DNA of 50,475 nucleotides, from the sequence record OR424386.1. One strand, written 5' to 3'. Shown here one piece after another: positions 19,681-48,027 of this stretch. This DNA is from Escherichia phage vB-Eco-KMB25. Position 1 is the first letter of the stretch, and each line of letters starts with the position of its first letter. The translations under genes were made by a program, and so were the position numbers. Under the pieces are notes generated by a model. That model saw only the letters and a list, made by a program, of their open reading frames with translations, was not told the DNA's origin and ran no database searches.

Positions 19681-19720
19681 AATGTGGGGCGCATGCCCCA
19701 CTAATTAAAGAGGTGATTTT

Positions 19721-20537: not shown

Positions 20538-20585
20538 GGTTATTTCCTTGTCATTTTGAATTTGGTTCATAGTTTGTGTGAGATA

Positions 20586-20640
20586 ACTATGCTACTAAAA
20601 TCCAATTGTTGCAAGTATTGTTTTTAGCAAAAAGTGCTAT
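20586..20640 (-). promoter_or_regulatory. promoter of the lipoprotein gene: TTGCAA-17-CATAGT with an upstream dyad box
   Basis: Minus-strand -35 at 20609-20614 and -10 at 20586-20591; box TAGCACTTTTTGCTAAAAAC at 20621-20640. Confidence 0.4.
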
Positions 20641-20723
20641 CTGTTGTTTTCTTTTGTTCCAAGGTGTTCACAACTTAATCCGGCGTAAAATTGAAAACGT
20701 CTTGATAACAAAAAGAACAAATG

Positions 20724-22118: not shown

Positions 22119-22119
22119 A

Positions 22120-22161
22120 TAGCACTTTTTGCTAAAACAGCCATTCGATGCGTGGTATACT
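22120..22161 (+). promoter_or_regulatory. dyad-box promoter (TAGCACTTTTTGCTAAAAC, 17 bp, TATACT)
   Basis: Member of the repeated box-spacer-hexamer architecture. Confidence 0.5.
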
Positions 22162-27584: not shown

Positions 27585-27595
27585 ATTTTCACCTA

Positions 27596-27637
27596 TAGCA
27601 CTTTTTGCTAAAACTATTGAGTAAGTTTGTGTATGAT
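27596..27637 (+). promoter_or_regulatory. dyad-box promoter (TAGCACTTTTTGCTAAAAC, 17 bp, TATGAT)
   Basis: Upstream of the helicase gene. Confidence 0.5.
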
Positions 27638-27672: not shown

Positions 27673-29646
27673 ATGATTCCTAACATTGAAAAACAGATTG
27701 AAGAACTTGGAGCGGAAAAGATAAAGGCAATACAAAAACGCTTCACAGTTGGTGAAATTGTGCCTTACGAATATCAATGCGTTGCATACGTTGAGATCGC
27801 AAAGCGTTTAAGCCGTTATGAACATCCGTTTTTTGTTAAGGCGGCTGTATCGGCTGGTAAAACAATCATCTTTGCTATGGTTGCGGCTCAGTGCCGTAAA
27901 ATGGGGTTGAAAGCGTTATTTCTGGCGCGTCAATCTGAAATTGTGGATCAGGATTCAAAAGAGATTAGCGCCTTTGGTGTTCCGAATTCCGTTTATTGCG
28001 CTGGCCTGAATACCAAAAGCGCTTATTTCCCGATTGTTGTCGGATCGGAAGGCACTGTAATTGGTGGATTGAATAAAGCGTTGGGTGATTACGTCCCGCA
28101 AGTTTTAGGTATAGACGAATGTCATCAAGTCAACTGGAATGATATTGTTGAAGCCGAGGAAAACGGCGAAAGCATAGAGCAAATGATGACACCGAAAGGT
28201 GAACCAGTTGAAGGGAATCCGTTGCTGATTGGTTCAGGCCGCGCACAATACACCATTATCATTGCAGAAATGCGCCGCCGTTGCCTTGAGACTTACGGTC
28301 ATCAGTTGCGCATATTTGGAATGACAGGATCGGAATATCGCGGAATTGAGCCGATACTTGTCGAAGATAAAAGAATTCCTGGGTTTTGGCGTGAGCAGAT
28401 CACAAACATTGATACTGATTACCTGGTAAAATTTGGTTCAGTTGTTCCCACTTATTTTGGCAATGTTGGTGATTTGGGTTACGACTTATCAGAATTTACG
28501 CCAGTACATGAATTTGGCGTTGCTGATTATGACCAGAAGCAATTAAAGGCAATGAGTGACAAGATTCACAAATCAGGAACCATGACGCAGAAAATAATGC
28601 AGATGGTTCATGAGGTGATGAAAAACCGCTTGTGCGCTCTTGTTACTTGCGCTGACGAAAGGCACTGTAAAGAGGCGGCGGCGGCGCTTCCTCCTGGCAC
28701 GAAATATCACATTATTACCGGAAAAACTGGAGAGAAACAGAGGCGCTTATGGCTTGAGGATGCTTATGAAGGCAGGGTGAAATATATTTTTCAGGTTCAG
28801 GCGCTAACAACTGGCGTGAACGTGCCGCCGTGGGATACTTCTGTTATTTTGCGTAAGATCGGAAGTCTCACGCTATTAACTCAACTTTTGGGGCGTGGTA
28901 TGCGTCAATTAAAAACATACCATAAAGAAGTATTGGGGATGCACAAAACGGATCACCTTGTTTTGGATTTTTCAGGCACGATGTTTGAAATGGGTAATTT
29001 GTATTTCGATCCGATGTTAGAGCAAGCGCAATTCCAGTTACGTAAATCACAGGACAAAGATCCGAAATATTGCCCGATTTGCGGTACAGAAAATTCATTC
29101 TATGCTCGCCGTTGCATTAATGAGGATGAAAACGGAAATCGTTGTGAACATTTCTGGACGTTCCAGGAATGTGAGGATCAGATTGATGACCGCACAAAGA
29201 AAGTTATTGTAAAAGGTTGCGGCGCAAAAAATGACGTTGCGGCGCGTGTATGCCGTTGCTGTAATGTTCAGTTACGCGATCCAAATGATAACTTATCCGG
29301 CAAGATGTACCGTAAAAACGATTGGTGCGACGTGTTAGATTTTAATGTGACGCTGACAAAAAACCAGGCTGGCGTAATATTCTGCTACACGTTACGTGAT
29401 AGTGGCGGCGTAGAATTCAGGGCATACGAAAAATATTTCCCTGAATCAGAACACAAGATATGTAAAACGCTTTGGACAAAGGCGGTTAGAACACATGTTA
29501 TAGATCGCCAAGCCGCAAACTTTATGATCACTTGCCGCAATGCAATTAAGATCATGAGTTATGCGGGGCAAATATTGCCGCCAAAACGTGTTACCCATCG
29601 CAAGAACACAAAGAAAGAAGATTTGATCGCACAGAAGGAGTTTTAA
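27673..29646 (+). CDS. SF2 DNA helicase (DEAD/DEAH-box type)
   Basis: Walker A AVSAGKT, DECH box, motif VI QLLGRGMRQ; C-terminal Cys-rich zinc-ribbon-like region. Confidence 0.8.
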   Translation: MIPNIEKQIEELGAEKIKAIQKRFTVGEIVPYEYQCVAYVEIAKRLSRYEHPFFVKAAVSAGKTIIFAMVAAQCRKMGLKALFLARQSEIVDQDSKEISAFGVPNSVYCAGLNTKSAYFPIVVGSEGTVIGGLNKALGDYVPQVLGIDECHQVNWNDIVEAEENGESIEQMMTPKGEPVEGNPLLIGSGRAQYTIIIAEMRRRCLETYGHQLRIFGMTGSEYRGIEPILVEDKRIPGFWREQITNIDTDYLVKFGSVVPTYFGNVGDLGYDLSEFTPVHEFGVADYDQKQLKAMSDKIHKSGTMTQKIMQMVHEVMKNRLCALVTCADERHCKEAAAALPPGTKYHIITGKTGEKQRRLWLEDAYEGRVKYIFQVQALTTGVNVPPWDTSVILRKIGSLTLLTQLLGRGMRQLKTYHKEVLGMHKTDHLVLDFSGTMFEMGNLYFDPMLEQAQFQLRKSQDKDPKYCPICGTENSFYARRCINEDENGNRCEHFWTFQECEDQIDDRTKKVIVKGCGAKNDVAARVCRCCNVQLRDPNDNLSGKMYRKNDWCDVLDFNVTLTKNQAGVIFCYTLRDSGGVEFRAYEKYFPESEHKICKTLWTKAVRTHVIDRQAANFMITCRNAIKIMSYAGQILPPKRVTHRKNTKKEDLIAQKEF

Positions 29647-29648
29647 AA

Positions 29649-30056
29649 ATGGTTACTGATAAAGGCGATTATCTGGAGTATTACGACAAATCAGATCCAG
29701 ATGACAGAAAAGAGGAAGCGCACCAGGTTGATTCTTATTCATGGTTAACATATGAGTTTCCAATGTGGCTTGTTTGGCACACTAAAAACGAAGGGAAGAA
29801 AACAATAGGCACAGCAGTAAAGGATCAGCAAGCAGGTGTAAAAAAAGGAGTAAGCGACATTCTAATCCTGACTGGTTTTATTGGCTGCAAATATGCATTC
29901 ATTGCAATTGAGCTTAAACGAGCCAACAAGAAAGGAACTAAAGTAAGCCAGGAACAAAGGGAATTCTTGCGCCGCGTTAGGGAATGCGGAGGATTTGCCG
30001 CAGTATGCTATGGTGTAGATCAAGTAAAATTGGCTATCGCAGACGCTACAAAATAG
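29649..30056 (+). CDS. VRR-NUC domain nuclease (putative)
   Basis: 135 aa; core ...DILILTGFIGCKYAFIAIELKR...VSQEQREF... resembles the VRR-NUC D-E-K fold. Confidence 0.5.
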   Translation: MVTDKGDYLEYYDKSDPDDRKEEAHQVDSYSWLTYEFPMWLVWHTKNEGKKTIGTAVKDQQAGVKKGVSDILILTGFIGCKYAFIAIELKRANKKGTKVSQEQREFLRRVRECGGFAAVCYGVDQVKLAIADATK

Positions 30057-30096
30057 CACTTTTTGTTAAAACAGGCGCGACGGAATGCGCCATAAT
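30054..30096 (+). promoter_or_regulatory. dyad-box promoter (TAGCACTTTTTGTTAAAAC, 18 bp, CATAAT)
   Basis: Box TAG is the stop codon of the upstream gene. Confidence 0.5.
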
Positions 30097-30127
30097 GCAC
30101 ACATCAGAACGAAACGGAGAATTAACC

Positions 30128-30406
30128 ATGAAAAAGATGTTATCAGTAGTTGCTTTATCACTTGCCATTGTCGGTTGCATGGATAAACCAAAAACATATA
30201 TTTGCGGAAATGAAGCGTTTGAGGTTACAAGCGAATATATGAAAGTTGTGCAAGGTAAAAGCACAGGCGTTGTAATGGATAATATCAGCAAAAATCAATA
30301 TAAGCTGTTTACGCCAATTGGAACGGCTTTTTACACTGTTAACGATAGCACCATTGATATTAAAGTTGGCGTTTATCAGAACACTCTAACTTGCGAGGTA
30401 AAATAA
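30128..30406 (+). CDS. small lipoprotein (hypothetical)
   Basis: 92 aa from ATG 30128 behind GGAG; signal peptide with lipobox MKKMLSVVALSLAIVGC. Confidence 0.45.
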   Translation: MKKMLSVVALSLAIVGCMDKPKTYICGNEAFEVTSEYMKVVQGKSTGVVMDNISKNQYKLFTPIGTAFYTVNDSTIDIKVGVYQNTLTCEVK

Positions 30407-30407
30407 A

Positions 30408-31148
30408 ATGGCTAAGGATTTTCAGGACAAAGCAACCATTGATACTTTTGAGCCGGAAATGGATTTTCATGAACTGCAACACGGCAGATATTCAGATATT
30501 GCTTTACGTTCAGGCGGTCATTATCAGCCAGTTAGAGAAAACCCATTATTTAAGGTTAGCGGCAACCGTTATGCAGGAAGTAAAACGCCGGACGTAGTGC
30601 GCGACTTGTGGGAAACTCCAGATGAAATTGTTGAATACCTTGCTGAACGTTACGGCAAATATGATCTTGACGCAGCAGCAACGGAAGATAATAAAAAATG
30701 CGATAAATTTTACAGCAAAGAAACAAACTGCTTAAAGCGTTGGTGGGGTAGCAATAAGCACGTTTGGTTAAATCCACCATACAGCAATCCAGATCCATTT
30801 ATCAAAAAAGCAATTGAGCAGATGGAACACGGAAACCAGATTGATATTTTACTTCCGGCTGATAATTCAACTGCATGGTTTAGTGACGCACAAAAACACG
30901 CGGCAGAAATTATCTGGATTACTGGTGAAACCTGGAAGGATGAAGAAGGTCGCGAATATTCCAGAACTGGTCGAGTAGCGTTTATTTCTGGCATGACAGG
31001 TGAGCCAGTTAGCGGAAACAATAAAGGTAGTGTAATTTTTATCATGCGCCAATTGGAAGAAGGTGAGCAACAGCAAACGCACTATGTGAAGATTAGCGAC
31101 ATTTGCCCTTCCGTAAAAAATAAACGAGCCAAAGCGCGGAGTATTTAA
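30408..31148 (+). CDS. dam: DNA N6-adenine methyltransferase (phage Dam-type)
   Basis: 246 aa; catalytic WLNPPYS motif; size and context as for T1-type Dam. Confidence 0.75.
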   Translation: MAKDFQDKATIDTFEPEMDFHELQHGRYSDIALRSGGHYQPVRENPLFKVSGNRYAGSKTPDVVRDLWETPDEIVEYLAERYGKYDLDAAATEDNKKCDKFYSKETNCLKRWWGSNKHVWLNPPYSNPDPFIKKAIEQMEHGNQIDILLPADNSTAWFSDAQKHAAEIIWITGETWKDEEGREYSRTGRVAFISGMTGEPVSGNNKGSVIFIMRQLEEGEQQQTHYVKISDICPSVKNKRAKARSI

Positions 31149-31377
31149 AATGAGCATTCGATTAGCCGATCACATGAAATGGGATTTATTTGTCGGTATG
31201 ACAATTCGCTTACTTGATAAGCATGGTTATAACGATGATAAAATGGAGTTGATAAACTGCCTGGATATGACATTTGACGAAATCAAAGTTGCGCCTTTGT
31301 ACATGTGGGAAAGAAAAATTGAGCACGACCTGATACAATACAAACGCAGAGAGGGCGCACGATTTTTCAATGTGAAA

Positions 31378-31420
31378 TAGCACTTTTTGTTAAAACCCGC
31401 TACGGCGGGTTTTGTATTAT
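31378..31420 (+). promoter_or_regulatory. dyad-box promoter (TAGCACTTTTTGTTAAAAC, 18 bp, TATTAT)
   Basis: Spacer contains terminator-like hairpin CCCGC-TACG-GCGGG followed by TTTTG. Confidence 0.5.
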
Positions 31421-31923
31421 GTGCTTAACGGAAAACAAGAGGATTTCAAAAATGAAAATCGTAAACGTCGAATACTTCAAAGATGCGCAATGGCTGGCTA
31501 AAGAATCATTGTTTATGCTTGATCGCAAAAATCCAAAGGTTATTGCACAAATACTTTGGAATGACGCAATGGAGTTACTTAAAAAGGCTTACGGTTATGA
31601 AAGTGAAGAAAGGTAAAAAGGAAACTTGGGAGCTTGCTAAAAAAGGCGGTCTTGATGAAGGGATCGCCAAAATAGCAAAGTATTTCGATATTAAAGACGT
31701 GTGCGTTATTGTTGGTGACGAAATGGCGTATGTTGAAGAAAAGCCGCGACGTGTTCACCGTGTTCCGGCAATACCAACAACAATAGACTATAAATCAGTT
31801 ATTAACAAAACCAAAGAACAAAAGAAATATTACAAATGAGATACATTTCTGTTATTTTGTTGCCGCCTGTTATCGCTTGGGTTATTATGTACGCCGTTGT
31901 TATGAATTAAGAGGATGTTAAAC

Positions 31924-33039
31924 ATGAGTTTAAAAAAGATTACCGACGAGCAATTGATTGCTGAACGTGAGGCGGGTTTAAAACTGCGTGAGATTGCGGA
32001 AAAATACGGAATGAGCTTGCGCCAGGTTGAGCACCGCCACAGCAAATTAGCAAAGCGTGGCGAGATCTCAACTATCGGATCACCTGGCTTTGCGGTAATT
32101 GGCGAGTCAAAGCTAGTTGATAAAAACGGCAATACTAAACTAACCTGGATTAAGACGCACAAAGATAAAGACCAGTTAGAGGCAATAATGCAAGCGGCTA
32201 TGGATGCATTTTCTGACGAGTTGCCACGCCTGGAACCACAGCCGGAAAAGATTACTGACTATTCGAAAACCCTTGCGCTATATCCGATCTTTGATATTCA
32301 TATTGGTGCAATGGCTCATAAGCATGAAAGCGGAGAGAATTACGACACAGCAACGGCAGAAAAGATCATGAATGAATTCTTTGATTATGCCGTCGATAAA
32401 GCACCGAATAGCGAAAAGGCTGTATTGCTGATTGGTGGTGATATGATTCACAGCGACGGCCTGGAGGCTGTAACACCTGCAAGCGGTCACGTTTTGGATC
32501 AGGATTCGCGATATGCGAAACTTGTTTATGTTGCCATTCGAGCCACGCGCAGAGCAGTAAGCCGAATGCTGGAAAAACATAAAGAGGTTGAATTGCAGAT
32601 CATTGAAGGTAATCACGACCAATCAGGAATGATCTGGCTACGTGCTGCAATGGCGGCGGCGTATGAGAATGAGCCACGCGTAAAGGTTGATGTTTCTCCG
32701 CGCGTCGTGCATCACACTCAATATGGTAAAACTTTCCTGGCTTATCATCATGGTCACACTGTACGAAAGCCAGAAACGCTTTTAATGATGTGTGCAGCGG
32801 ATTGGCGGGAAGATTTCGGAAACTCCAATTCAATGTATGCGCATGTAGGGCATTGGCATCACCAGACTGTTACAGAAACGAGCCTTGGCATTGTTGAGGT
32901 GCATAGCACTATGGCAGCAAAAGACGCTTACGCCGCGCGTGGTGGCTGGCGTTCACGTCGCAGGGCGGCGGTAATTATTTATGATAAGGAATATGGCGAA
33001 ATAGGGCGGTTTATGTTTTACCCTGAAATGATTGCTTAA
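31924..33039 (+). CDS. metallophosphoesterase with N-terminal HTH domain
   Basis: HTH LKLREIAEKYGMSLRQV; calcineurin-type motifs DIHIG, GGDMIHSD, GNHD, HHGH. Confidence 0.5.
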   Translation: MSLKKITDEQLIAEREAGLKLREIAEKYGMSLRQVEHRHSKLAKRGEISTIGSPGFAVIGESKLVDKNGNTKLTWIKTHKDKDQLEAIMQAAMDAFSDELPRLEPQPEKITDYSKTLALYPIFDIHIGAMAHKHESGENYDTATAEKIMNEFFDYAVDKAPNSEKAVLLIGGDMIHSDGLEAVTPASGHVLDQDSRYAKLVYVAIRATRRAVSRMLEKHKEVELQIIEGNHDQSGMIWLRAAMAAAYENEPRVKVDVSPRVVHHTQYGKTFLAYHHGHTVRKPETLLMMCAADWREDFGNSNSMYAHVGHWHHQTVTETSLGIVEVHSTMAAKDAYAARGGWRSRRRAAVIIYDKEYGEIGRFMFYPEMIA

Positions 33040-33055
33040 TTAAATTATCAAGAAA

Positions 33056-33084
33056 AAGGCTGGCTAAGTGCTGGCCTTTTTTTG
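33056..33084 (+). terminator. rho-independent terminator (putative)
   Basis: GGCTGGC-TAAGT-GCTGGCC hairpin (two G-U wobbles) followed by a T-run. Confidence 0.4.
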
Positions 33085-33150
33085 TTTTTGTGGTTAACAT
33101 ATTCACACTAATTTTGGCATTGACATTTTAATTTAATTGAGGATCAGATT

Positions 33151-33375
33151 ATGAGAGACTTTCTTTTAATGGCGCAAAACTCTTTCGGAGGTGCAACGGT
33201 AGTTGGATCTTTTACTGGTGAGTTTTTGCTTGCACTTGCTACGTTTATTTTGTTCGCTATTTTCGGCTGTTGGGGCGCATGGCTGAAATGGCGTGATAGT
33301 AAAGCGATCCGAGAGGCTTTAGATTCAGGGGATTTAAAAACGGCGCTTAATCTACGGCAGAAAGAGAGGGTGTAA
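33151..33375 (+). CDS. holin (putative)
   Basis: 74 aa with hydrophobic segments and charged C-terminus, immediately upstream of the endolysin gene. Confidence 0.5.
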
Positions 33376-33869
33376 TGACAATCAAGAAAGGTATAGCCGC
33401 CACCGTCACAGGGGCGGCTTTAATGTTGGCATCGCCTTTGATTGAAGAAATTGAAGGCGTAAAGTATAAGCCTTACAAGGATATTGCGGGGATCTGGACT
33501 GTATGCCACGGCATTACAGGAAAGGATGTGATTCTTGGAAAGGAATATACCAGGCGAGAATGTGACGCGCTATTAGCAAAACACATGAAAGTAGCGGCTG
33601 ACGCTGTTGATAAGGCGGTTAATGTTGAAATTCCTTTATCAATGCGAGCGGCTCTATACTCATTCACTTTTAATGCTGGTACTGGCGCGTTTCGTAAGTC
33701 AACCATGCTGAAAAAGATCAACAATGGTGATTTATGGGGCGGTTGTGGTGAGCTATGGAACTGGACATATTACCGGAATCCTAAAACGGGTAAAAAGGAA
33801 AAATCAAGAGGATTGAAGAATCGCCGCGCCGTCGAATATAAATATTGTGTAAGGGATCTGAATAAATGA
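33375..33869 (+). CDS. endolysin, lysozyme (T4-type glycoside hydrolase), possible SAR type
   Basis: Catalytic pattern E..D..T in [26 protein letters not shown]; weakly hydrophobic Gly/Ala-rich N-terminus [15 protein letters not shown]. Confidence 0.75.
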
Positions 33870-34255
33870 AAAGAAAATTACTGGCTATTATGATGTGCAT
33901 TGCTCTTTCTGGTTGTTCAGCTTCAAGCGTGTTACCTGGTCTGATTGGTAGCAAGCCTGATATAACGGCACAGGCTGGAGCGGAGAATGTGAAACAGACT
34001 GTTGGTGTAACCGCAAAGCAGGATACATCAAGCAAGCAGGAAACCACATTCAAAGAATCGGCAGTTGGTCAAGTTGACACATCCAATAAAAAGCAGGTTA
34101 GCACTTCAAGCATTAAGGCAGATAACATCACAGCGGAAAGAATAGAGATCCGAAATAATGATGGCCTTAATGTTCCGGCAATCGCAATGGGTATCTTGAT
34201 GTTTATTGCTGGTATGCTGGCGGGGTGGACACTTAAACGTAATAAGGCGGCATAA
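33866..34255 (+). CDS. unimolecular spanin (u-spanin) candidate
   Basis: N-terminal lipoprotein signal (LSGC lipobox) plus C-terminal transmembrane segment; last gene of the lysis cassette, as for T1 gp11. Confidence 0.6.
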
Positions 34256-34268
34256 GCCGCCTTTTCTT

Positions 34269-34490
34269 TTAAAAAATATTGCTCATTAAGTCTTGAAAAC
34301 TATTGCCGCTATAATCCTTTTCTTCAATAATGTGAGCACCTTTCTTTTTTATATCCCACAGCATTTTTTCATACTCGCAGCGGTTAATGCCAAACGTACT
34401 ACCATCATCAACATATGCGGTTCCTTTGTTGTTGAAAACGTCAAATGTAACATTAACAACGCGAATTGTTTTGATAGTGCATTTTAACAT
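34269..34490 (-). CDS. hypothetical protein
   Basis: 73-aa ORF downstream of a dyad-box promoter. Confidence 0.3.
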   Translation of the reverse strand: MLKCTIKTIRVVNVTFDVFNNKGTAYVDDGSTFGINRCEYEKMLWDIKKKGAHIIEEKDYSGNSFQDLMSNIF

Positions 34491-34526
34491 TTTGTTTTCC
34501 TTTTGTTGCTACGTTTCGTTAAAACA

Positions 34527-34569
34527 AATATACCCGATACAAGATCGGGTGTTTTAACAAAAAGTGCTA
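34527..34569 (-). promoter_or_regulatory. dyad-box promoter (TAGCACTTTTTGTTAAAAC, 18 bp, TATATT)
   Basis: Box TAG is the stop codon of the upstream gene. Confidence 0.5.
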
Positions 34570-34687
34570 TTCAAAGCGCCTGACGTGAATTAGTAGTTCA
34601 CCGTCATCATTTGTTAACTGGTGCTCATTATCTCCAAACGCTCGCATGTCACTGTAAAGCAATAGCAATAATGAGTAGACCAAATCA

Positions 34688-35080
34688 TCATGCGAAACTC
34701 TCATTGCTGAACTTTCTTTCAAAATAAGATCTATCAAATGCTGGCTTGCAGAATAATTCTTCATCACTCATTTTCTCAATGTTCATCATCTCCCACACAT
34801 AACGATTGGAATCACCTTCCAGGCTATGCAACTCAAAATTAAACGGCCTTTTCATCTTGTTTTTGCACCAGTACACGCAATGAACGCCGTCAAGATATCC
34901 ATAACCAATCATTCGCGCTATAAACTCTTTGCTTGAGCTTGAAGCGAAATAGCGGGGCGTTACCCCCGCATTTTTGGCGAGCCTTTCACATTCACGGTGA
35001 CGGAATATAAATCTTGCTAACTCTTGGCGGTTGAATTTCTCGCGAGACTCGCAAAAGCGATACAGATCTAATAAGAACAT
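34688..35080 (-). CDS. hypothetical protein
   Basis: 130-aa ORF; overlaps a small downstream ORF (34567-34704). Confidence 0.3.
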   Translation of the reverse strand: MFLLDLYRFCESREKFNRQELARFIFRHRECERLAKNAGVTPRYFASSSSKEFIARMIGYGYLDGVHCVYWCKNKMKRPFNFELHSLEGDSNRYVWEMMNIEKMSDEELFCKPAFDRSYFERKFSNESFA

Positions 35081-35082
35081 GA

Positions 35083-36663
35083 TTACCCCATTAACGCCGG
35101 ATTTACATAAACAAATTTACCAACGCTGCAAACATAATTCTTTTCTTCAAGCATTGGCAATAATTGTTCCTCAATTCGTTTCATCACGCCTGATTGACCT
35201 GTAAACGGCTTAACCTTACGCGCACTTTCATAGATGGCTCTTGCATTGGTAACTCCTTTATTTTGACGTGAGATCTTAATGATGATTTCAATTAACTTGC
35301 TCATTTCGGCATCATCGCCAGCGTGACCGGAAGCATTAGCGGCGTTGATATATGTTTTGCTTAATTCGCTGAACATCACCAAAGCCTCTTGCATTGTCTC
35401 AACTTCAATTTCTCGCGACTTTTGCGGCGTACCGTTTGGATTAAACCAATTGCGGATCGTGTGCAATACTGACGCAATGCGGATCACTTGCTTATCCATT
35501 TTGCCCAAAGCACCACGCAACATTGTATGTGAATATTTCCCGCCGTCTGCTAAATCTGGCTCTAATTGCTGGCGAGCAATATTAAGAACACGCATTGCAG
35601 AACGTGACGGCTTCAATACAACATTTTGCTCAGTCATGATGTTATGAATCAACTGGAAATATTGCGCCTTTAATTCTTTATCAACTGGCGTGTAATCAAG
35701 ATCACCATTTTCATCAATAAATACACGCTCGCCTAACATTGTTTTTTCACGTACAAGCAAGAAACGTTCACTAACACCGATACCACGCGCCCCTGCATCC
35801 ATGATCCCTTTTATCGTTTCATCCTGGGCAATTACGCTCATGCAGCCCAACGCAACAAAACTCATATTGTTTTCAGAGTTGGCGCGAGCTATTGAAACGT
35901 GTCCGGCGTCCCATGCTTTTAGAACCAATTCGCTGTTAGTCTTGCGATCACTATTAGCGTAAGTCAATCCGAGTAAGCTGTTGATGCTTGTTGCTTCATC
36001 GGAAATGACAGCAAAGTTACCCTGGCGATTGTTGATCTTTGCTAACCCTTCCGGCGTGGTGTCTGATACCGGAAAAACGATATCGCACATTTTTTCTAAC
36101 TTTTCCTCTAATTCCTCCTTTTCCTCAAACAACGCAGCTAACTCAGTGCCGGAACGTTCAGCTTTCAATTCCTTTTCAACGCCTTTTAATTTCGCTGCGA
36201 TCTTCTTTCGCTCTTTCTTGCGTTGTTCGTTGATGCGCTCAACTTCACAGACCATTGGCGCAATAGCCAGGCTGTTGATTGCTGATTTACCAGTTGATGG
36301 CGGCTGACTGGTTACAACATAAAGCGCCGTTGGTTGTTCAGTGCCGTGGTACTCAACTTGGAAGCGTCCAACCATAGCGGCGGAAACGCAACCAATGAAA
36401 TGCATATAGGCCGATGATTCAGGAAATTGAACAGATTGCGCAATGCTACGTGACAGTTTACCCACAACATCAACATCATTACCCAAAGAGATCACAGGAT
36501 AGCGGTCATTAGCGCCGTTAATATCCTTTACAGGTTCCCAAAAGCTGGACGATTGGCGGTAGCCGTTCGACTGAATAGCAACGCGAAGCGGCGATGTTCC
36601 CTGCGATTCTGCAATGGCTATAACTTGTTGAGGTGTCAATTTGTTGGTGTCAAAGTCAAACAT
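35083..36663 (-). CDS. P-loop NTPase (Walker A/B), possible replication-associated ATPase
   Basis: 526 aa; Walker A TSQPPSTGKS and Walker B-like VISDEAT. Confidence 0.45.
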   Translation of the reverse strand: MFDFDTNKLTPQQVIAIAESQGTSPLRVAIQSNGYRQSSSFWEPVKDINGANDRYPVISLGNDVDVVGKLSRSIAQSVQFPESSAYMHFIGCVSAAMVGRFQVEYHGTEQPTALYVVTSQPPSTGKSAINSLAIAPMVCEVERINEQRKKERKKIAAKLKGVEKELKAERSGTELAALFEEKEELEEKLEKMCDIVFPVSDTTPEGLAKINNRQGNFAVISDEATSINSLLGLTYANSDRKTNSELVLKAWDAGHVSIARANSENNMSFVALGCMSVIAQDETIKGIMDAGARGIGVSERFLLVREKTMLGERVFIDENGDLDYTPVDKELKAQYFQLIHNIMTEQNVVLKPSRSAMRVLNIARQQLEPDLADGGKYSHTMLRGALGKMDKQVIRIASVLHTIRNWFNPNGTPQKSREIEVETMQEALVMFSELSKTYINAANASGHAGDDAEMSKLIEIIIKISRQNKGVTNARAIYESARKVKPFTGQSGVMKRIEEQLLPMLEEKNYVCSVGKFVYVNPALMG

Positions 36664-36690
36664 CTAAAAATCTCCTTCTTGTTGCCGCTA

Positions 36691-36733
36691 ATTATAACGG
36701 CAACATTCTACAGCCTTTTAGCAATTCGTGCTA
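36691..36733 (-). promoter_or_regulatory. dyad-box promoter (TAGCACGAATTGCTAAAAG, 18 bp, TATAAT)
   Basis: Perfect -10 hexamer lies in the loop of hairpin GTTGCCG/CGGCAAC. Confidence 0.5.
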
Positions 36734-36979
36734 TTTGATCGGCTCAACCCTGGCTAATAACCTTCCATCTATAATGCTATGACATTCAAGAGTTTTAGGA
36801 TCGAATGCAAGCGAACGATGGAACGTATGACCAATCAGCAAATATGAATGCTTATCCCTGATGCGATAGACCGTTTCACCTTCCTTTAATGACGATATCG
36901 CACTAAAAACAACCTTGTAACGATATTTTTGCATGGCCTCAGAACGGTGAGGCGTATAGTCTTTTTCTGGTAAACTCAT
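36731..36979 (-). CDS. hypothetical protein
   Basis: 82-aa ORF whose TAG stop is the first triplet of the downstream dyad box. Confidence 0.3.
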   Translation of the reverse strand: MSLPEKDYTPHRSEAMQKYRYKVVFSAISSLKEGETVYRIRDKHSYLLIGHTFHRSLAFDPKTLECHSIIDGRLLARVEPIK

Positions 36980-37338
36980 GAGTATTTGGCCTCAAACAGA
37001 TAAGCACCGCCAGCGGCAGAGAATCCAACTTCTTCCCGATACAGCGTGAAACGGTCGCCGTTTTCGTCGAACACGTATCCAGCAACAGCACCTAACACGC
37101 GGCCTTGTTCGATCTGGTAACGCTTATCGGCTTTGAAAGTTTTCTTGATCTGCATGGAGTGGTTTACCCATGTGCATTTAATGGTTTTGGTCTTAACATT
37201 TCGGAATGTTAATCCTGTTAAGTTTGCGTGAATCCATTTCCCATCTAACTTAACGAAAGTATCATCATTTTCGTCTACCCGCGCTTTGTATAGGCGGTTA
37301 TCAGATCCGATAAGTTTGATTGATTTGAATTTAGCCAT
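36976..37338 (-). CDS. hypothetical protein
   Basis: 120-aa ORF with RBS AAGGAG. Confidence 0.3.
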   Translation of the reverse strand: MAKFKSIKLIGSDNRLYKARVDENDDTFVKLDGKWIHANLTGLTFRNVKTKTIKCTWVNHSMQIKKTFKADKRYQIEQGRVLGAVAGYVFDENGDRFTLYREEVGFSAAGGAYLFEAKYS

Positions 37339-37370
37339 TTGATTTATCTCCTTTTGTTTTCGTTGAAATC

Positions 37371-37413
37371 ATTATGCCGGATACGTGATCCGGCGTTTTA
37401 ACAAAAAGTGCTA
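37371..37413 (-). promoter_or_regulatory. dyad-box promoter (TAGCACTTTTTGTTAAAAC, 18 bp, CATAAT)
   Basis: Spacer is hairpin GCCGGAT-CACGT-ATCCGGC. Confidence 0.5.
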
Positions 37414-38106
37414 TTTCTGATTTGCCAGGCATACAGCAAGCGCAAAGCCGCGCGGAGTGAGTGAGCGGATCAGCTTTGTTCGCTTAGACTTGCCGCCGAG
37501 CTTTTGCCAGCCTGGATTGTTGTTCCCTGTTGGCAATACTGCGTTTGTATCCGGCATTACAAAGCCGTTACCCGTCCAAAGACAAGTTTTTTTGGTGTAC
37601 GCATCGCGAGCGGGAATGATTTCAGGAAAGTGAGGATGTTTATCATCTTCCGGCAACAGACCTCCAAACGCGCAAGGATGAAAGATAAAATCAGGTTGCC
37701 GCCACATTGACGACAGAACACTAACAGGATTCTCAATCATATATGGAACGTTAAACCGATCCGCAATATTGGCAGCAATCTTTGCCGTTTCAACCGCCTT
37801 TTTCTGGAAGTCTGGATCACGTTCACGCTTTGCTGCAAAGTGACGCGATCCGCTAACAGCTAAATCAGTGCATGGAGGGAATGCAATAATAAAATCTGGA
37901 GTGCCAAAGACGCGCATCATTGCGTTATGCTGGAATGATAATCCGATCCACTCATTCAAATAAACGATGTTGGGATGAGTCACGCGCACTGATTGGTAAT
38001 CACCATGATCAGCACCGTCGAAATTAAAGCACAGCACTTTGTGACCACGTTCAGCCCACGGCAACGCAGCATAACCAGAACCATCAAATAGTGAGAAAAT
38101 AAGCAT
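37411..38106 (-). CDS. putative SAM-dependent DNA methyltransferase (C5-cytosine-like motifs)
   Basis: 231 aa from ATG 38106 behind AAAGGA; motif I-like LFDGSGY, PC-containing FPPCTD, ENV-like MIENPVSV. Confidence 0.4.
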   Translation of the reverse strand: MLIFSLFDGSGYAALPWAERGHKVLCFNFDGADHGDYQSVRVTHPNIVYLNEWIGLSFQHNAMMRVFGTPDFIIAFPPCTDLAVSGSRHFAAKRERDPDFQKKAVETAKIAANIADRFNVPYMIENPVSVLSSMWRQPDFIFHPCAFGGLLPEDDKHPHFPEIIPARDAYTKKTCLWTGNGFVMPDTNAVLPTGNNNPGWQKLGGKSKRTKLIRSLTPRGFALAVCLANQK

Positions 38107-38783
38107 GTTTAAATCCTTTCTGTATGACCTTGCAAGGCATTTTGTTTGTAGGTGTGACAATCGTATTAGTTACGGCCTGAAATCGCGAAATAATGCGAAA
38201 CAGGCCGCTATTTTTTACTTACAGAATGGGCATGTTGTTTTATCCCCGCTTCCGCCGTGTTTTGGACAGCAAATTTTTTCGATAGGTGTCATTTTAAATA
38301 CTCCTTAGAATGGGAAACAACGCTTGCAAGATGGATCGAAGTTACAACCGCAATCATTGATTATTGCGTTAGGATCAGCAAGCATCACGCTACTTTCTTG
38401 ATCCATATCCATAGCGCCTAATGCGTCATCAAGCGTTATTTCAAGATAGGCAACTTTAAGCGCCCATTCCTTGTTGAGTCCATCCGCCTCCGCTTCATGT
38501 AGGCGAGCAAAGAAAGCATCTTGAACCATATCAACCCCACTTCTCAATAAACATGCTCATTTCGTCAATCATCGCGTAAGCATCGCTTTCAGTCATGCGA
38601 CGGATTCTTCCGCCTGGGTGTTCGCCAACAGCGTAACCAGTTTTTACGCGGGTAATCGTTAACTGATGGAATCCAGAATCGCGATCCATTTTCAAAACTA
38701 CTTTCCCGTGAGCTTTGACAATGTTCATGATGGATTCAGTTTTCAGTTTCATTTTTGATTCTCCATTTTGTTTATGTGAAAGT

Positions 38784-38826
38784 ATGATACCAATCAGAGC
38801 GTTATCGTTTTTAGCAATTCGTGCTA
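38784..38826 (-). promoter_or_regulatory. dyad-box promoter (TAGCACGAATTGCTAAAAAC, 17 bp, TATCAT)
   Basis: Box encodes the C-terminal NSTNC of a 51-aa upstream ORF (38822-38978). Confidence 0.45.
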
Positions 38827-38974
38827 TTTACGGCGATAAACGGATATCCTGTTAAATCTGCATTTCTATAACGTGCAGACCTAACCCAACAGCCGCCTTT
38901 GCTCATAATTAAAGCGTTTTTATGGCGAATGTTCACGCGGCAAATTCTTCCGGTTTTTATGTTTTTGAAGTAGG

Positions 38975-39208
38975 TCATAATTTAACCTCATGATACTCTA
39001 TAAACTCTTGCACATATGCGCATTCGCGCGGCGACTCCTGGCCTTTTATCACCTCACAGCCACCATTAAACAGATAGCAGTGCTGGCAAAGGTTGCCACC
39101 TGCGTTTTCCTCAGCGATCTGAATTCCGGTACACAAACCGCCACCAAACCTATGAGGAAAATCGTAAGCCTGGCAGCGGCACGTTGCTTGATTCCGCTTA
39201 CGTTTCAT
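38975..39208 (-). CDS. cysteine-rich small protein (hypothetical, possible zinc binding)
   Basis: 77 aa with several CxC/CxxC-type motifs. Confidence 0.3.
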   Translation of the reverse strand: MKRKRNQATCRCQAYDFPHRFGGGLCTGIQIAEENAGGNLCQHCYLFNGGCEVIKGQESPRECAYVQEFIEYHEVKL

Positions 39209-39521: not shown

Positions 39522-39564
39522 ATTATGCCAAAACAAACCGGATCGCTTTTAACAAAAAGTGCTA
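39522..39564 (-). promoter_or_regulatory. dyad-box promoter (TAGCACTTTTTGTTAAAAG, 18 bp, CATAAT)
   Basis: Upstream of gene 39208-39489. Confidence 0.5.
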
Positions 39565-40340
39565 TTTAATTAAAATACGAATACCTTTTCGCACGCTTTC
39601 CGTCGCCTCCGTAATGGTCATTAGCAACAGCAAGAATCCAAGCGTTAGGAATAAAAAATAGCTTCATTAATCACTCTCCATGACAATTACAGGCTCCAGG
39701 CGCTCAAGCACCACTTTGAAATCGGAGTAAAAAGTAGGGCGACGTTTTGTTAATTCCTCATATGTATCAGTTGCCAGGCAAGCGCGATCACCTTCATAGC
39801 ACACAACTCGCTTACCATTGGCGCGGCTTATTGCAACGACGCGATAAGTATTATTGATCATTTCATCACCTCAATTGAATAAATACTTTCAACGCCTGGC
39901 GCGTATAACCGATCTCCATCTTCAGTTATGCAAAGACAAAGTGCAAGGCCGCGATTGTCTGAAATATGCAAGTCATTTTGTCTATCCATCAAAATTTCAT
40001 ATTCGCGATCTTCATCAAAGCGCCAAACGCTTAACATGCACTTTCCAGATGATTTAACTTTTACTTTCTTTCCGGCGAAATTTAAACGACTCATTGCGCC
40101 ACCTCCACAGTTTCAAATACGGTATTGAATGCCAGAAGTTTAAATTTCTTGCCAGGCTCAACAACCTGAATATTCCAGGTAATGCCGCCGTGATATGCAA
40201 CCATATCATCAATATCGACGGTGATTTGTGCGCCCTTCTTGAATAAACCTTTTTCATGGCTCGCATCGCGTACAGTAACCACAGTTTCGAATTGAGTTTG
40301 AATTTCCATCGTTAATCTCCTGATTGGTTTCGATGGGGTA

Positions 40341-40383
40341 ACTATATCAAGATACCCCGATCCGGTTTTAACAAAAAATGCTA
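40341..40383 (-). promoter_or_regulatory. dyad-box promoter (TAGCATTTTTTGTTAAAAC, 18 bp, TATAGT)
   Basis: -10 lies in the loop of hairpin GGGGTA/TACCCC. Confidence 0.5.
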
Positions 40384-40384
40384 T

Positions 40385-40819
40385 TTACAGCCATTCGCCG
40401 GAAACAATGAAATCAGTGAAATCGTCATGATCCAAAATGCTGTGATAGCCAGTGCAATAATCATTTTTAACCATGTTACCACGCAAACGCACATAATCAG
40501 CCTTTCGATCCGTAATCCAACGAATAAAGCGAGCGTTACGTTGTGGTATCGTTCCGGCGTAAGCCTCTTTGAATCCAATGTGTGCGATGAATGCCACAAA
40601 GCGGATTTGCAAGCCTGGATTGTCTTTCTTTGCCTCGTTAACCAGGTCGCGGAAGTTTTCACGCGTTGGCTTGACCGGAACCAATTCGCCTAACTCGATC
40701 ATGCGGTTGAAGTCTGAAATGCTGGAATATGATTGCATAAACAGCCCATCGCTACCAAACATCACAACGCCGTTTTCGATGAAGTAAGTGTGTCCGTTGT
40801 ATTTGTTGGTGTATTTCAT
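40385..40819 (-). CDS. hypothetical protein
   Basis: 145 aa from ATG 40819 behind GAGG. Confidence 0.3.
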   Translation of the reverse strand: MKYTNKYNGHTYFIENGVVMFGSDGLFMQSYSSISDFNRMIELGELVPVKPTRENFRDLVNEAKKDNPGLQIRFVAFIAHIGFKEAYAGTIPQRNARFIRWITDRKADYVRLRGNMVKNDYCTGYHSILDHDDFTDFIVSGEWL

Positions 40820-40850: not shown

Positions 40851-40893
40851 ATCATAGCAATTCGCGTCTGATTGGTTTTAACAAAAAGTGCTA
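40851..40893 (-). promoter_or_regulatory. dyad-box promoter (TAGCACTTTTTGTTAAAAC, 18 bp, TATGAT)
   Basis: Outermost promoter of the minus-strand cluster, at the edge of the AT-rich region. Confidence 0.5.
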
Positions 40894-40902
40894 TTCATGC
40901 GA

Positions 40903-40932: not shown

Positions 40933-41221
40933 ATGAACGCATCGTTTTGTGTATCGAACGCATTCATGATCCTGTTACGTGATCGTTATATGATCAGATG
41001 ATGATTGATGTGTGAGATTTTGTGATTGAAATTGATTTGATTTGATTAGATTTGAGTAGTGAGAGAGTAGAAATAATCACACCTTGCCGATCAGTGAAAA
41101 CTTTTCCCGCAAAACATCACTCCATGCTCCGCGCGTTTCGTTTTGTTCCTCGTTGTTTTCCGCCAGACCTTCCGCAGTTTAGCGCAACGTTACACAACAC
41201 GTATAACAACAAAATATCTAT

Positions 41222-41294
41222 ATAATACATTGAAAAGTAAGATAATTATTATTATATATCTATATTGTTATATAACTTGTTTTGCTTGTTTCTC
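41222..41294. repeat. AT-rich repeat element, copy 2
   Basis: Shares the 19-nt core AAATATCTATATAATACAT and the TAATTATTATTATATAT block with 20724-20808. Confidence 0.5.
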
Positions 41295-41482
41295 ATGATA
41301 TTGATACCCCTTTACTGATTGATAGAGTATAAAATTATAAGATAGGTGCTCTTATTTATTATAGGTGGCGGTGATTTTTAGCGAAATGGTGTAACGATTT
41401 AGAACATCGTTGATTTGAAAGGATAAATTTTCAATTACTGTTACATTGCGTGATGTTTTTGTTGTCTAATCAAAAATAACAC

Positions 41483-41510
41483 TTGACGCATAAGCCAGGC
41501 TTGCTAAGAT
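41483..41510 (+). promoter_or_regulatory. sigma70-type early promoter TTGACG-16-TAAGAT
   Basis: Upstream A-rich tract; about 35 nt before the GGAGG RBS of the first early gene. Confidence 0.55.
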
Positions 41511-41544
41511 TTCTGCATCTAGCAACAACGGAGGATAACCAATC

Positions 41545-41832
41545 ATGGTAAGGGGCAAAATCGTAAAGCGTGACCTATCCATAGTTGACGCAACGCCAGA
41601 AGATGCAACCAAAGATATCATGCGCCTAATGTACATAGCACGGATACTGGAGGCTGCAAAACCAAACAGGCTGTATTACATCGACATTAAGGCATCTGGT
41701 CGAGATGTTAACTCATTGCGCCAGGCAATAAACACTATTGCGAAAGAGGATCGCATAACCATTAAGACAATAACCACTGATAACGGCTATATAGGCTTTG
41801 TTATCATCGACGTTAAAGAAGCGTTTGTGTAA
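41545..41832 (+). CDS. hypothetical early protein
   Basis: 95-aa ORF with RBS GGAGG. Confidence 0.3.
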   Translation: MVRGKIVKRDLSIVDATPEDATKDIMRLMYIARILEAAKPNRLYYIDIKASGRDVNSLRQAINTIAKEDRITIKTITTDNGYIGFVIIDVKEAFV

Positions 41833-41843
41833 AGAGGTGAATC

Positions 41844-42287
41844 ATGGAACAAATGACAAGTAAAGAGTTTTGCGAAAAATTGCGTGAAGCCGCAAGAGCC
41901 GCTGCAACAGGTGAAGTGATCAAGTTGCCAGTTGCCTACATAACAATGAACGTCCAGGCAGAGGACGCAAAGAAACTAAATTCATCATACATCCGCACGA
42001 TCATGAATCGCGTACCTGAAGTAAAAGAGGTTGGATCTGTAAGTGTCAAGAAAAAGACAAGTGATGACGGAGCGGAATATTACGAAATAGCAATTAACCG
42101 CGACACAAAACGCCGCATCGTGACAACCAATGACCTTCCGGCAATCAAAGAGCATGAGCGCGAAAAGCTGGTTGAAAAGATTATGCGCATATCGCCGGAC
42201 TTCTCACACCTGGACGATGAAAAGGCACTGGTTGCAATGCGAGCGGTTGCCACGTTCAAAGAACTGATTAAGGAGATCGCGAAGTGA
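41844..42287 (+). CDS. hypothetical early protein
   Basis: 147-aa ORF with RBS AGAGGTG. Confidence 0.3.
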   Translation: MEQMTSKEFCEKLREAARAAATGEVIKLPVAYITMNVQAEDAKKLNSSYIRTIMNRVPEVKEVGSVSVKKKTSDDGAEYYEIAINRDTKRRIVTTNDLPAIKEHEREKLVEKIMRISPDFSHLDDEKALVAMRAVATFKELIKEIAK

Positions 42288-42510: not shown

Positions 42511-42553
42511 GATTGGCAAATAGCACTTTTTGTTAAAACTCGATTGGGGTAGT
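42511..42553 (+). promoter_or_regulatory. dyad-box promoter (TAGCACTTTTTGTTAAAAC, 18 bp, CATAAT)
   Basis: -10 in the loop of hairpin TGGGGTA/TACCCCA; followed by TCGAAACGAAACGAGG leader. Confidence 0.5.
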
Positions 42554-43355
42554 TTGGCATAATTACCCCATCGAAACGAAACGAGGAAAACACAATGACT
42601 ACCTTAATCACCTGGGAACACGAAACAAGCCAGCCAGTAACCCGCGAGTTTGAAACTCTTAGCCAGGCTTATCTTTTGGCTGCTAACGGTGGTTATTACA
42701 AGGCTCAAGTTGTTGATGAAATGGGAGTGATCGTTTATGAATTCCATGCATAATTTCCGCAGCTACACGCAGGAAGTGGATTTTGAGGGGATCAAGTTAC
42801 CACTTCCTAACATATACCGCTATATCACTCGTGATGAATACGGATTTATAAACGCCTGGCGAGATAAGCCCAAAAAGGTTGGCAATGAATACGGCGACGG
42901 CTCAGAGATGCCGATCACGTTAGGTCATCAAACTGGCGAGAATGTAGCGGCTGTAATGCGCAAATATCGCCGCAGCCTCACAAACTCATTAATTTCTATC
43001 TTTGGCATACAGGAGTAATAAAAATGTTTGAACTGAAACGCGTAACTGTTGAGATCCTGAATGATGGCTCTTACGATGGAATGAAACACTTAACATTCCC
43101 GATCCGCATTGAGAATTGCATTGATTACGGTATTGAAGTTGGAATGGTTGACGTTCCGCTTGATGCCCTGGTAGCGGCTGGCTATGACAAAGAGAAAGGC
43201 CAATGCGCCGATATACCGGATAGCTATGAAAGCGACACACATTTCCCGTTCACCTATGGCGAATGCAGGATTGTTGATTGAGGTTATAAAGTGAGCAGTT
43301 GGCATAATGAACACGTAATGCAATTCTACCGCTACAGAATAAAGAAAATGCTAAA

Positions 43356-43398
43356 TAGCACGAATTGCTAAAACTAAATCAGGGGCATTTGTTATAGT
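43356..43398 (+). promoter_or_regulatory. dyad-box promoter (TAGCACGAATTGCTAAAAC, 18 bp, TGtTATAGT)
   Basis: Extended -10-like TGnTATAGT in the loop of hairpin AGGGGCA/TGCCCCT. Confidence 0.5.
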
Positions 43399-45111: not shown

Positions 45112-45477
45112 AGATCGGCATGGTGATAACGTGCTTATTTACATCGAAGGGAAATCGGTGTTGATTGACTGCAAATATGAGGATGACACACATTTGCAGT
45201 TTCGCGGAATCTTTGACAAGAAAGGCGCATTGGAGTTAGCGGAACACATCAAGCGTCTTGCGGAAGAATTACCGGAATAGAGGATTTATTATGTTGACTT
45301 TTATCTTGATCGCTATCGTTTTAATTCTGTATGTTTGCGGCGCTTTCCTGATGCGAGCGCTACTAAAAGAGGCTGACGCTGATGATAAGGATAGTTGGAA
45401 GCCGATTATTTTATGGCCTGGCTATATCATCGTGCCAATTTACGAACTAATCCGCGATGGTGAGTTTAAATGGTAAA

Positions 45478-45520
45478 TAGCACTTTTTGCTAAAACTTGC
45501 TAAGGCACATTTGATAAAGT
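45478..45520 (+). promoter_or_regulatory. dyad-box promoter (TAGCACTTTTTGCTAAAAC, 18 bp, TGaTAAAGT)
   Basis: -10 in the loop of hairpin AGGCACA/TGTGCCT. Confidence 0.5.
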
Positions 45521-46024: not shown

Positions 46025-46600
46025 ATGGCTAAAATTATAATCCTCAATGCGCCTCCTGGTGCTGGTAAAGACACGATAGGCAAGATGATTTCTGTCTATT
46101 CGCCTGGTAAGCAATGCCGAATCATTAGCTTTAAAGAGCCAATGTTTGATATTGCATTAGCTATCCTGGGCAAAGAGAACTATAAGCGTTTCATGCTGGC
46201 TTACGATGACAGAGAGCAGAAAGAAAGGCCGCAAACATTCCTGATGGGTATGTCACCGCGCGAGTTCATGATCTGGATTAGCGAGGATGTGATCAAGCCT
46301 AAATTCGGTAAGGATTATTTCGGCGTAAGGTTTAATCAGAAAGTAAAAGAGTGTGATGCTCCTGTTGTTTGCACTGATGGCGGTTTTCCAGATGAAATTA
46401 TAGCGCTAATCAATGCTGGTAATGAGGTGAAGTTATGCCGCTTGCACCGCGACGGGTTCACGTTTGCAGGTGATAGCCGCAACTACATTCGAATAAATCC
46501 ATACTACCAGAAAAACGGATATAGCGAGCACGATTATAAATTGGTTGATAAACAACCAAATGTAACGGTAAAGGAAATCATTCGCGATCACCTTAAATAG
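46025..46600 (+). CDS. P-loop kinase (polynucleotide or nucleotide kinase-like)
   Basis: N-terminal Walker A LNAPPGAGKDT; 191 aa; 0.9 kb downstream of the HAD phosphatase. Confidence 0.5.
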   Translation: MAKIIILNAPPGAGKDTIGKMISVYSPGKQCRIISFKEPMFDIALAILGKENYKRFMLAYDDREQKERPQTFLMGMSPREFMIWISEDVIKPKFGKDYFGVRFNQKVKECDAPVVCTDGGFPDEIIALINAGNEVKLCRLHRDGFTFAGDSRNYIRINPYYQKNGYSEHDYKLVDKQPNVTVKEIIRDHLK

Positions 46601-46640
46601 CACGAATTGCTAAAACTTGCGCAAGGCCATTTGTTATAGT
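46598..46640 (+). promoter_or_regulatory. dyad-box promoter (TAGCACGAATTGCTAAAAC, 18 bp, TGtTATAGT)
   Basis: Box TAG is the kinase stop codon; -10 in the loop of hairpin AAGGCCA/TGGCCTT. Confidence 0.5.
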
Positions 46641-47987: not shown

Positions 47988-48027
47988 CACTTTTTGTTAA
48001 AACTTCCGCGAGGGCATTTGTTAAAGT
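47985..48027 (+). promoter_or_regulatory. dyad-box promoter (TAGCACTTTTTGTTAAAAC, 18 bp, TGtTAAAGT)
   Basis: Same architecture; first gene downstream encodes the acidic 67-aa protein. Confidence 0.5.

Follow-up and report, generated by a model that had tools for sequence, protein, structure and literature searches.

The genome of Escherichia phage vB-Eco-KMB25 (sequence record OR424386.1) was analysed as a single window of 50,475 nt, in which two DNA methyltransferase genes of different type lie on opposite strands. The pair had been proposed in an earlier note made from the sequence alone, and both open reading frames (ORFs) were found exactly at 30408-31148 on the plus strand and at 37411-38106 on the minus strand. 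The phage is a Tlsvirus close to Citrobacter phage Stevie, with two orphan S-adenosylmethionine (SAM)-dependent DNA methyltransferases that were already annotated. Between positions 30000 and 38300 the window is 99.7% identical to Stevie, a T1-like phage of the Drexlerviridae (Tempevirinae, Tlsvirus), and about 40 further phages of Citrobacter, Salmonella and Escherichia match this region at 93-99% identity. The Stevie counterparts are gp33 (Dam-like gene) and gp47 (short gene), both named "DNA methyltransferase" in RefSeq, while the labels "Dam methylase" and "putative DNA cytosine methyltransferase" are used in relatives. Neither gene is new: Stevie and dozens of related phages carry the annotations, and a homologue of each has been studied by experiment. 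Phage T1 and phage KarlJaspers (Bas06) were also used for comparison. The features of the two genes are as follows.

30408..31148, plus strand: Dam-like N6-adenine DNA methyltransferase gene, 246 amino acids (PF05869, TIGR01712, phrog_111, homology to T1 Dam)
30771..30782, plus strand: NPPY catalytic motif IV, residues 122-125 (translation; kept in the T1 and KarlJaspers proteins)
30395..30399, plus strand: ribosome-binding site GAGGT ahead of the Dam ATG (sequence; annotated at the same place in Stevie)
37411..38106, minus strand: short C5-cytosine DNA methyltransferase gene, 231 amino acids, of the phrog_757 or "Dcm-like" family of Drexlerviridae
38114..38118, minus strand: ribosome-binding site AAGGA of the short gene (sequence; Stevie annotation)
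38071..38091, minus strand: motif I region LFDGSGY, residues 6-12, cofactor-binding loop (hhalign to M.HhaI F18-G22)
37864..37881, minus strand: motif IV FPPCTD, residues 76-81, with the predicted catalytic Cys79 (codon 37870-37872; hhalign to M.HhaI P80-C81)
37717..37734, minus strand: motif VI ENPVSV, residues 125-130, Glu125 being the equivalent of the ENV glutamate (hhalign to M.HhaI E119-N120-V121)
37441..37476, minus strand: conserved C-terminal motif KLIRSLTPRGFA, with R214, P218 and G220 nearly invariant (conservation counts)

Judged by its sequence, the Dam-like gene is a phage Dam of the T1 type. The protein scored 210.1 bits (2.3e-62) against PF05869, for which the curated cutoff is 28.1, and 190.6 bits (1.4e-56; cutoff 97.05) against TIGR01712, an equivalog family named "phage N-6-adenine-methyltransferase"; phrog_111 was matched as well. 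T1 Dam (ST20) is 64% identical to it over 244 aligned residues (E 2e-121), and the KarlJaspers Dam is 68% identical. The NPPY motif, from which the earlier note had recognised a Dam-type enzyme, is present at residues 122-125, and the Dam type is backed by PF05869, TIGR01712 and the T1 homologue. A sequence search of the PDB detected no solved-structure relative of this protein. The NPPY motif and the gene neighbourhood (helicase, small ORF, dam) are shared with T1, whereas the N-terminal ~55 residues have diverged and, in the window, a lipoprotein-like ORF of 93 amino acids lies directly upstream of dam. T1 Dam was reportedly characterised as a GATC-specific N6-methyladenine methyltransferase by Auer & Schweiger in 1984 and by Schneider-Scherzer et al. 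in 1990. For the window enzyme, the predicted activity is most likely the formation of N6-methyladenine at GATC by way of the NPPY active site. An identity with the non-specific adenine methyltransferases Hia5/Hin1523 was rejected, as those are relatives of the E. coli and T4 Dam enzymes, carry DPPY and do not belong to PF05869 (PMC3299994).

The 93-residue ORF (30125-30406, plus strand) begins with MKKMLSVVALSLAIVGC, which reads as a signal of the lipoprotein type including a lipobox cysteine, and matches phrog_7420 at 4e-53. Its product could be a membrane or exclusion lipoprotein that is co-transcribed with dam.

The short cytosine methyltransferase and its family

Both the fold, taken from a structural model, and the catalytic core, with motifs I, IV and VI aligned by profile comparison, support the identification of the short protein as a C5 methyltransferase. 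A homology search, which the earlier note had named as a check, placed the protein in a methyltransferase family, since phrog_757 ("DNA methyltransferase") was matched at 1.5e-86 over residues 1-230. Conservation was evaluated in an alignment of 77 diverse members of this family (alignment A1). The PC-containing motif that had been noticed in FPPCTD proved to be a family feature, with C79 kept in 74/77 members and P77 in 73/77, and the same was found for the ENV-like motif in ENPVSV, where E125 is kept in 74/77, N126 in 72/77 and P127 in 76/77. The third motif, FxGxG, stood in part. LFDGSGY is present and its FDGSG was aligned by hhalign to the FAGLG of M.HhaI, but G9, the first glycine, is kept in just 8/77 members. 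The family motif I reads SL[F/Y]Dx[T/S]G, so the FxGxG spelling of the short protein is partly a clade coincidence.

The relation to canonical enzymes was assessed with a profile (A2) in which seven phage enzymes were combined with M.HhaI and E. coli Dcm; the M.HhaI sequence used had been checked against PDB entry 10mh (752 bits, residues 1-327). The phrog_757 profile was aligned to it by hhalign with a probability of 89% and an E-value of 2.2e-6, placing residues 3-134 onto residues 14-128 of M.HhaI. In this alignment FDGSG is paired with FAGLG, PC with PC and ENP with ENV, and the C-terminal half of the short protein is unalignable. When the family profile was compared with the single M.HhaI sequence, the PC motif alone was aligned. 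The sequence search of the PDB returned noise for the short protein as a single sequence and a marginal match to M.HaeIII (E 0.29) for the family profile.

An AlphaFold2 model built from the 77-sequence alignment reached a predicted local distance difference test score (pLDDT) of 96 and a predicted template modelling score (pTM) of 0.92. Searched with Foldseek against the PDB, the model retrieved chains of DNMT3A/B/C together with a single prophage C5 methyltransferase (E ~1e-6, template modelling (TM) score ~0.47), and against viral models (BFVD) it retrieved proteins named DNA-cytosine methylase. The likeness to the catalytic domains of DNMT3A and DNMT3B is a distant one (13-17% identity, TM ~0.47); the DNMT3 enzymes are eukaryotic, multidomain and active as oligomers. 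The canonical enzymes M.HhaI, M.HaeIII and E. coli Dcm differ in another way, the short protein being ~100 residues shorter and devoid of QxRxR, the GN of motif X and a canonical target recognition domain.

The earlier note had called a protein of 231 amino acids unusually short, which holds true for the protein and equally for the whole family. Members of phrog_757 in alignment A1 are 208-270 residues long (median 241), in comparison with 288-351 for canonical phage C5 enzymes and 327 for M.HhaI. Shortness is therefore a property of the family and not the result of a truncation. An alternative start at TTG 38160, which would give 249 residues and is used in a few database records, was discarded because it has no ribosome-binding site and the homologues align from the ATG at 38106.

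Relatives of the short protein were found in 5,404 database clusters at E <= 0.001, with 1,231 representatives at 50% identity, and the translated gene of Salmonella phage phSE-2 is 100% identical to it. Among phage GenBank records the gene family occurs in 1,533, distributed over Drexlerviridae, Dhillonvirus, Vequintavirinae, Straboviridae and others, as compared with 1,668 for canonical, M.HhaI-like enzymes. The family is thus very common in enterobacterial phages, and its target site is assumed to be CCWGG. Profile scans with Pfam and NCBIfam gave no match for the short protein; because these collections miss the family, automated annotation often reads "hypothetical protein".

Three observations were made on the surroundings of the domain. 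Two proteins of uncultured Caudovirales in BFVD, A0A6J5SE15_1 (1,397 residues, Helicase/UvrB N-terminal) and A0A6J5NPY6_2 (1,126 residues), match the short-protein model over ~240 columns at 25-28% identity and a TM score of ~0.65, and on the basis of these models the domain may occur also inside larger proteins. The homologous methyltransferase gene of Dhillonvirus and of certain other phages has an HNH or homing endonuclease gene as its direct neighbour. A few phage records hold a fragment only of the gene, for example Teewinot with residues 176-231. Such arrangements suggest homing-endonuclease traffic aimed at the locus.

The KarlJaspers homologue and retron Ec86

The closest link to experiment is provided by KarlJaspers. 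Its protein bas06_0055 is 65% identical to the short protein over the full length (236 versus 231 residues, E 3e-116); the gene, of 711 bp, is annotated as "Dcm-like C5 cytosine methyltransferase". The order DUF3987 helicase, two small ORFs, methyltransferase, all on one strand, is shared by the window, Stevie and KarlJaspers. Phage K42, a strain of KarlJaspers, shares 95.4% genome identity with Bas06 (Wang et al., 10.1101/2023.08.16.553469; the preprint was later printed in Cell Reports 43:114857, 2024). Residues C82, E128, K175 and K176 of the K42 enzyme align to C79, E125, K172 and K173 of the short protein. The two phages belong to different genera (Hanrivervirus for KarlJaspers/K42, Tlsvirus here), and 35% of the residues differ, including the variable stretch 186-197.

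In the work on K42, all four of four mutants escaping retron Ec86 (Eco1) disrupted the 711-bp gene or its ribosome-binding site, and expression of this gene was toxic solely when the retron was present. By LC-MS (mass spectrometry after liquid chromatography), 5-methylcytosine (5mC) on the multicopy single-stranded DNA (msDNA) of the retron was raised by the wild-type enzyme and not by a mutant with all four changes, C82A/E128A/K175A/K176A. When the CCTGG of the msDNA was mutated, retron defence was abolished. A methyltransferase of the K42 type was encoded by 34/35 retron-sensitive phages (10.1101/2023.08.16.553469).

The enzyme described earlier as the less conventional of the two hence has a characterised relative, since the K42 homologue deposits 5mC on msDNA. 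By analogy, formation of 5mC by the short protein would be expected, and it would likewise be expected to trigger retron Ec86. The enzyme would then be a likely restriction shield and at the same time the counterpart of a known Ec86 trigger, which is relevant to the choice and engineering of T1-like phages for therapy.

Putative target sites and probable roles

The window contains 284 GATC sites, which are not avoided, and 115 CCWGG sites, which is 2x the expectation from composition, so that this motif is not avoided either. On the other hand, CCSGG, GGWCC and GGSCC are each found 0 times versus 44-59 expected from base composition. Of all 64 six-base palindromes 21 are absent, and GGCC, AGCT and CTAG are depleted. 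Stevie and KarlJaspers are, like the window, rich in CCWGG and poor in CCSGG. T1 does not show this pattern: the 24.8 kb examined (about half of its genome) contain no short-methyltransferase gene, 32 CCSGG sites and CCWGG at expectation. These counts lend indirect support to GATC as the predicted target of the Dam-like enzyme and to CCWGG as the putative target of the short one. A CCWGG methylase combined with the elimination of CCSGG would be expected to neutralise both EcoRII-type (CCWGG) and SsoII-type (CCNGG) enzymes, a proposal drawn from few genomes.

The explanation that we prefer, with a probability of about 0.8, is that the phage carries a T1-type Dam acting at GATC and a minimal C5 enzyme acting at CCWGG, both of them with an anti-restriction function and the short one also able to trigger the retron. 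The two orphan SAM-dependent enzymes would operate without a restriction-enzyme partner. The Dam-like enzyme would produce N6-methyladenine at GATC through NPPY. In the short enzyme, Cys79 of the PC motif would attack C6 of a flipped-out cytosine while Glu125 of ENP protonates N3; the methyl group would be transferred to C5 and the cysteine released, the product being 5mC, likeliest at the inner C of CCWGG. Jointly, both enzymes would bring the DNA of a fast-replicating phage to full methylation at two motifs that enteric hosts methylate, and restriction enzymes specific for GATC, for CCWGG or for CCNGG would then be kept from cutting it. Cleavage of methylated DNA by enzymes of the McrBC type would also be avoided in CmCWGG, where 5mC is preceded by C and not by a purine. 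In hosts with retron Ec86 the cytosine methylation would become a liability, as methylation of the msDNA stem-loop would lead to abortive infection. Of this picture, the identity of the genes, the fold, the motifs and the homology to characterised proteins come from the analysis itself; the target sequences, the gain against restriction and the triggering of the retron by the short protein are inferred.

Several observations weigh against this explanation. With regard to the enzyme class, PF00145 gave no match for the short protein even at E <= 1, and its matches in the family are weak (6/77 members, best E 0.0014). Comparison of the family profile with E. coli K-12 Dcm by hhalign covered 25 columns round the PC motif (E 0.26). 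In the family alignment and by hhalign, none of QxRxR, motif X (GN) and a canonical target recognition domain was recognisable in the short protein. Since PF00145 misses it and its C-terminal half is unalignable, the protein is treated here as a C5 methyltransferase by fold and catalytic core, outside the current Pfam family; "Dcm-like" is a functional nickname, and orthology to Dcm or M.EcoRII is not supported by the sequences. With regard to the target, CCWGG was assumed in the preprint from the name "Dcm" and the CCTGG mutation of the msDNA, and not mapped. The retron assays used MG1655, a strain with a dcm gene of its own, yet little 5mC was present on the control msDNA (10.1101/2023.08.16.553469); because of this the phage enzyme may differ from host Dcm. 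The argument from site counts compares three related phages with half of a single genome. With regard to the role, most Drexlerviridae of the BASEL study, including a Tlsvirus, were very restriction-sensitive, with no link to methyltransferase content. Finally, both enzymatic activities are predictions for this phage.

The architecture of the C-terminal half bears on the question of the target. At the position of motif VIII (QxRxR), phrog_757 has instead the invariant D168-A-Y170-x-K172-x-T174, followed by x-x-W177, and at the position of motifs IX/X it has R214-S-x-T-P218-R-G220-F-A. From the motif VIII-like strand to the C-terminal motif RSxTPRGFAxA there are ~35 residues (180-213), too few for a canonical target recognition domain to fit, and from ENP to the C-terminal motif there are ~86, with a hypervariable, indel-rich stretch at ~185-203 across the family. 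The missing recognition domain and the hypervariable stretch would suit an active C5 methyltransferase with a target other than CCWGG, be it through a different or relaxed specificity, methylation of the outer C, or DNMT3-like recognition as a dimer. The best structural matches, DNMT3A/B, have minimal recognition domains, and outside motif IV there is no similarity to E. coli Dcm, both of which would fit such an enzyme. So would the result in the preprint that host Dcm of MG1655 neither methylated msDNA nor triggered the retron, while the phage enzyme did both. We nevertheless judge this alternative unlikely. Mutation of CCTGG in the msDNA abolished defence, and the enrichment of CCWGG with the elimination of CCSGG in three gene-carrying phages fits a W-specific enzyme and not a CCNGG or relaxed one. 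A 5mC preceded by a purine would, moreover, lay the phage open to McrBC in enteric hosts.

A related suggestion, offered tentatively and held to be improbable as it stands, is that phrog_757 is a distinct minimal C5 architecture, in which motifs I-VI are kept and the C-terminal half is replaced by a module of its own, so that specificity or cofactor use may differ from Dcm. The family-specific module contains Y170, K172, W177 and RSxTPRGFA. If this were true, it would explain why retron msDNA is marked by the phage enzyme and not by host Dcm, and one of the commonest families of phage cytosine methyltransferases (1,533 records, against 1,668 with M.HhaI-like relatives) would have an unmapped recognition mechanism. 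How an enzyme devoid of a canonical recognition domain chooses its site is a question for the whole phrog_757 family and is not peculiar to the window.

It was also considered whether the short enzyme transfers a group other than methyl, for example carboxymethyl from carboxy-SAM (Cx-SAM), which is made by E. coli, or acts on RNA like DNMT2. The model for the former is phage CmoX, a DNA cytosine C5-carboxymethyltransferase (PDB 8yf3; PMC12783734), which is a canonical enzyme of 372 residues with SPPC, with R350 for Cx-SAM and with CmoA alongside; the short protein shows none of these. Its motif is FPPC and not the SPPC that defines CmoX relatives, among the neighbours of the short gene neither cmoA nor a ligase gene was seen, and the 5mC detected by LC-MS in the preprint depended on active enzyme. 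The profiles leave the C-terminal half unaligned, and with it the conserved R219, a candidate for the motif X Asn position that selects Cx-SAM in CmoX. A non-methyl or RNA activity is regarded as highly improbable.

As regards the role, GATC and CCWGG are methylated by enteric hosts anyway, which would make the protection afforded by the preferred pair of activities partly redundant. This redundancy, and the absence in the BASEL study of a correlation between methyltransferase content and restriction resistance, would agree with a main role of one or both enzymes other than anti-restriction, such as evasion of MutH/SeqA-type functions by full methylation of the replicating phage DNA, timing of expression or packaging, or interference with host physiology. 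A remark in the K42 work that expression of the enzyme was toxic by itself would agree with it too. Such a role seems to us quite unlikely. The avoidance of palindromes indicates strong selection by restriction enzymes and spares exactly GATC and CCWGG. The mimicry of common host motifs by orphan phage methyltransferases is a well-documented anti-restriction strategy, which also counts against it. Phage DNA is, furthermore, incompletely methylated by the host: in lambda, host Dam methylates merely about half of the GATC sites before packaging (PMC3299994), which gives a fast lytic phage a reason to carry its own enzymes. An anti-restriction benefit of both enzymes would be in line with these observations.

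Genome mosaic and the 22-nt repeat

Set against Stevie over its full genome, the window has a mosaic structure, with 20644-41137 at 99.8% identity and the remainder at 88-97%. By megablast, three stretches of the window have no match to Stevie. Two of them, 19434-20643 and 41138-42282, are ~1.1-1.2 kb each and have flanks that are 96-99.8% identical. They are mosaic replacement modules, the former just past the tail-tip gene and the latter in the divergent early region. The final ~480 nt (49999-50475) also lack a match in Stevie and partially resemble a "membrane associated protein" gene adjoining the tail genes in related phages. The last 55 nt (50421-50475) repeat 20098-20152 without a difference, and a k-mer (55) join of strain variants in the assembly graph seems a better account of this than a biological repeat.

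No Rfam match was found in the window. Upstream of the short gene, 38107-38304 is an ORF-free gap of ~200 nt, unusually long for a tightly packed leftward gene block, in which neither an Rfam match nor a copy of the 22-nt motif described below was found.

A motif of 22 nt, AAATAGCAC(TTTTT/GAATT)G(T/C)TAAAAC, occurs in ~20 copies at the heads of gene blocks, nearly always in the local gene orientation. The copies are located as follows.

37395..37416, minus strand: copy AAATAGCACTTTTTGTTAAAAC, which overlaps the short gene's stop codon (repeat families D1-D10; repeat_region in Stevie)
30051..30072, plus strand: copy upstream of the block in which dam follows the lipoprotein ORF (30125-30406) (repeat_region in Stevie)
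31375-31396, 42518-42539, 43352-43373, 45474-45495, 46594-46615 and 47981-48002, plus strand: further copies
34551-34572, 36715-36736, 38808-38830, 39547-39568, 40366-40385 and 40876-40895, minus strand: further copies
22117-22138 and 27593-27614: other copies

The Stevie record labels the motif merely as "repeat_region". A generic sigma-70 scan of 29500-39000 gave fewer matches than in shuffled sequences and did not pick up the motif. As a rule a short GC-rich hairpin comes after the motif, with a TATAGT/CATAAT-like box ~25 nt downstream. Its sequence and placement make a promoter or operator module specific to the phage the probable function, and the copy at 37395-37416 may serve the next gene block to the left in this way.

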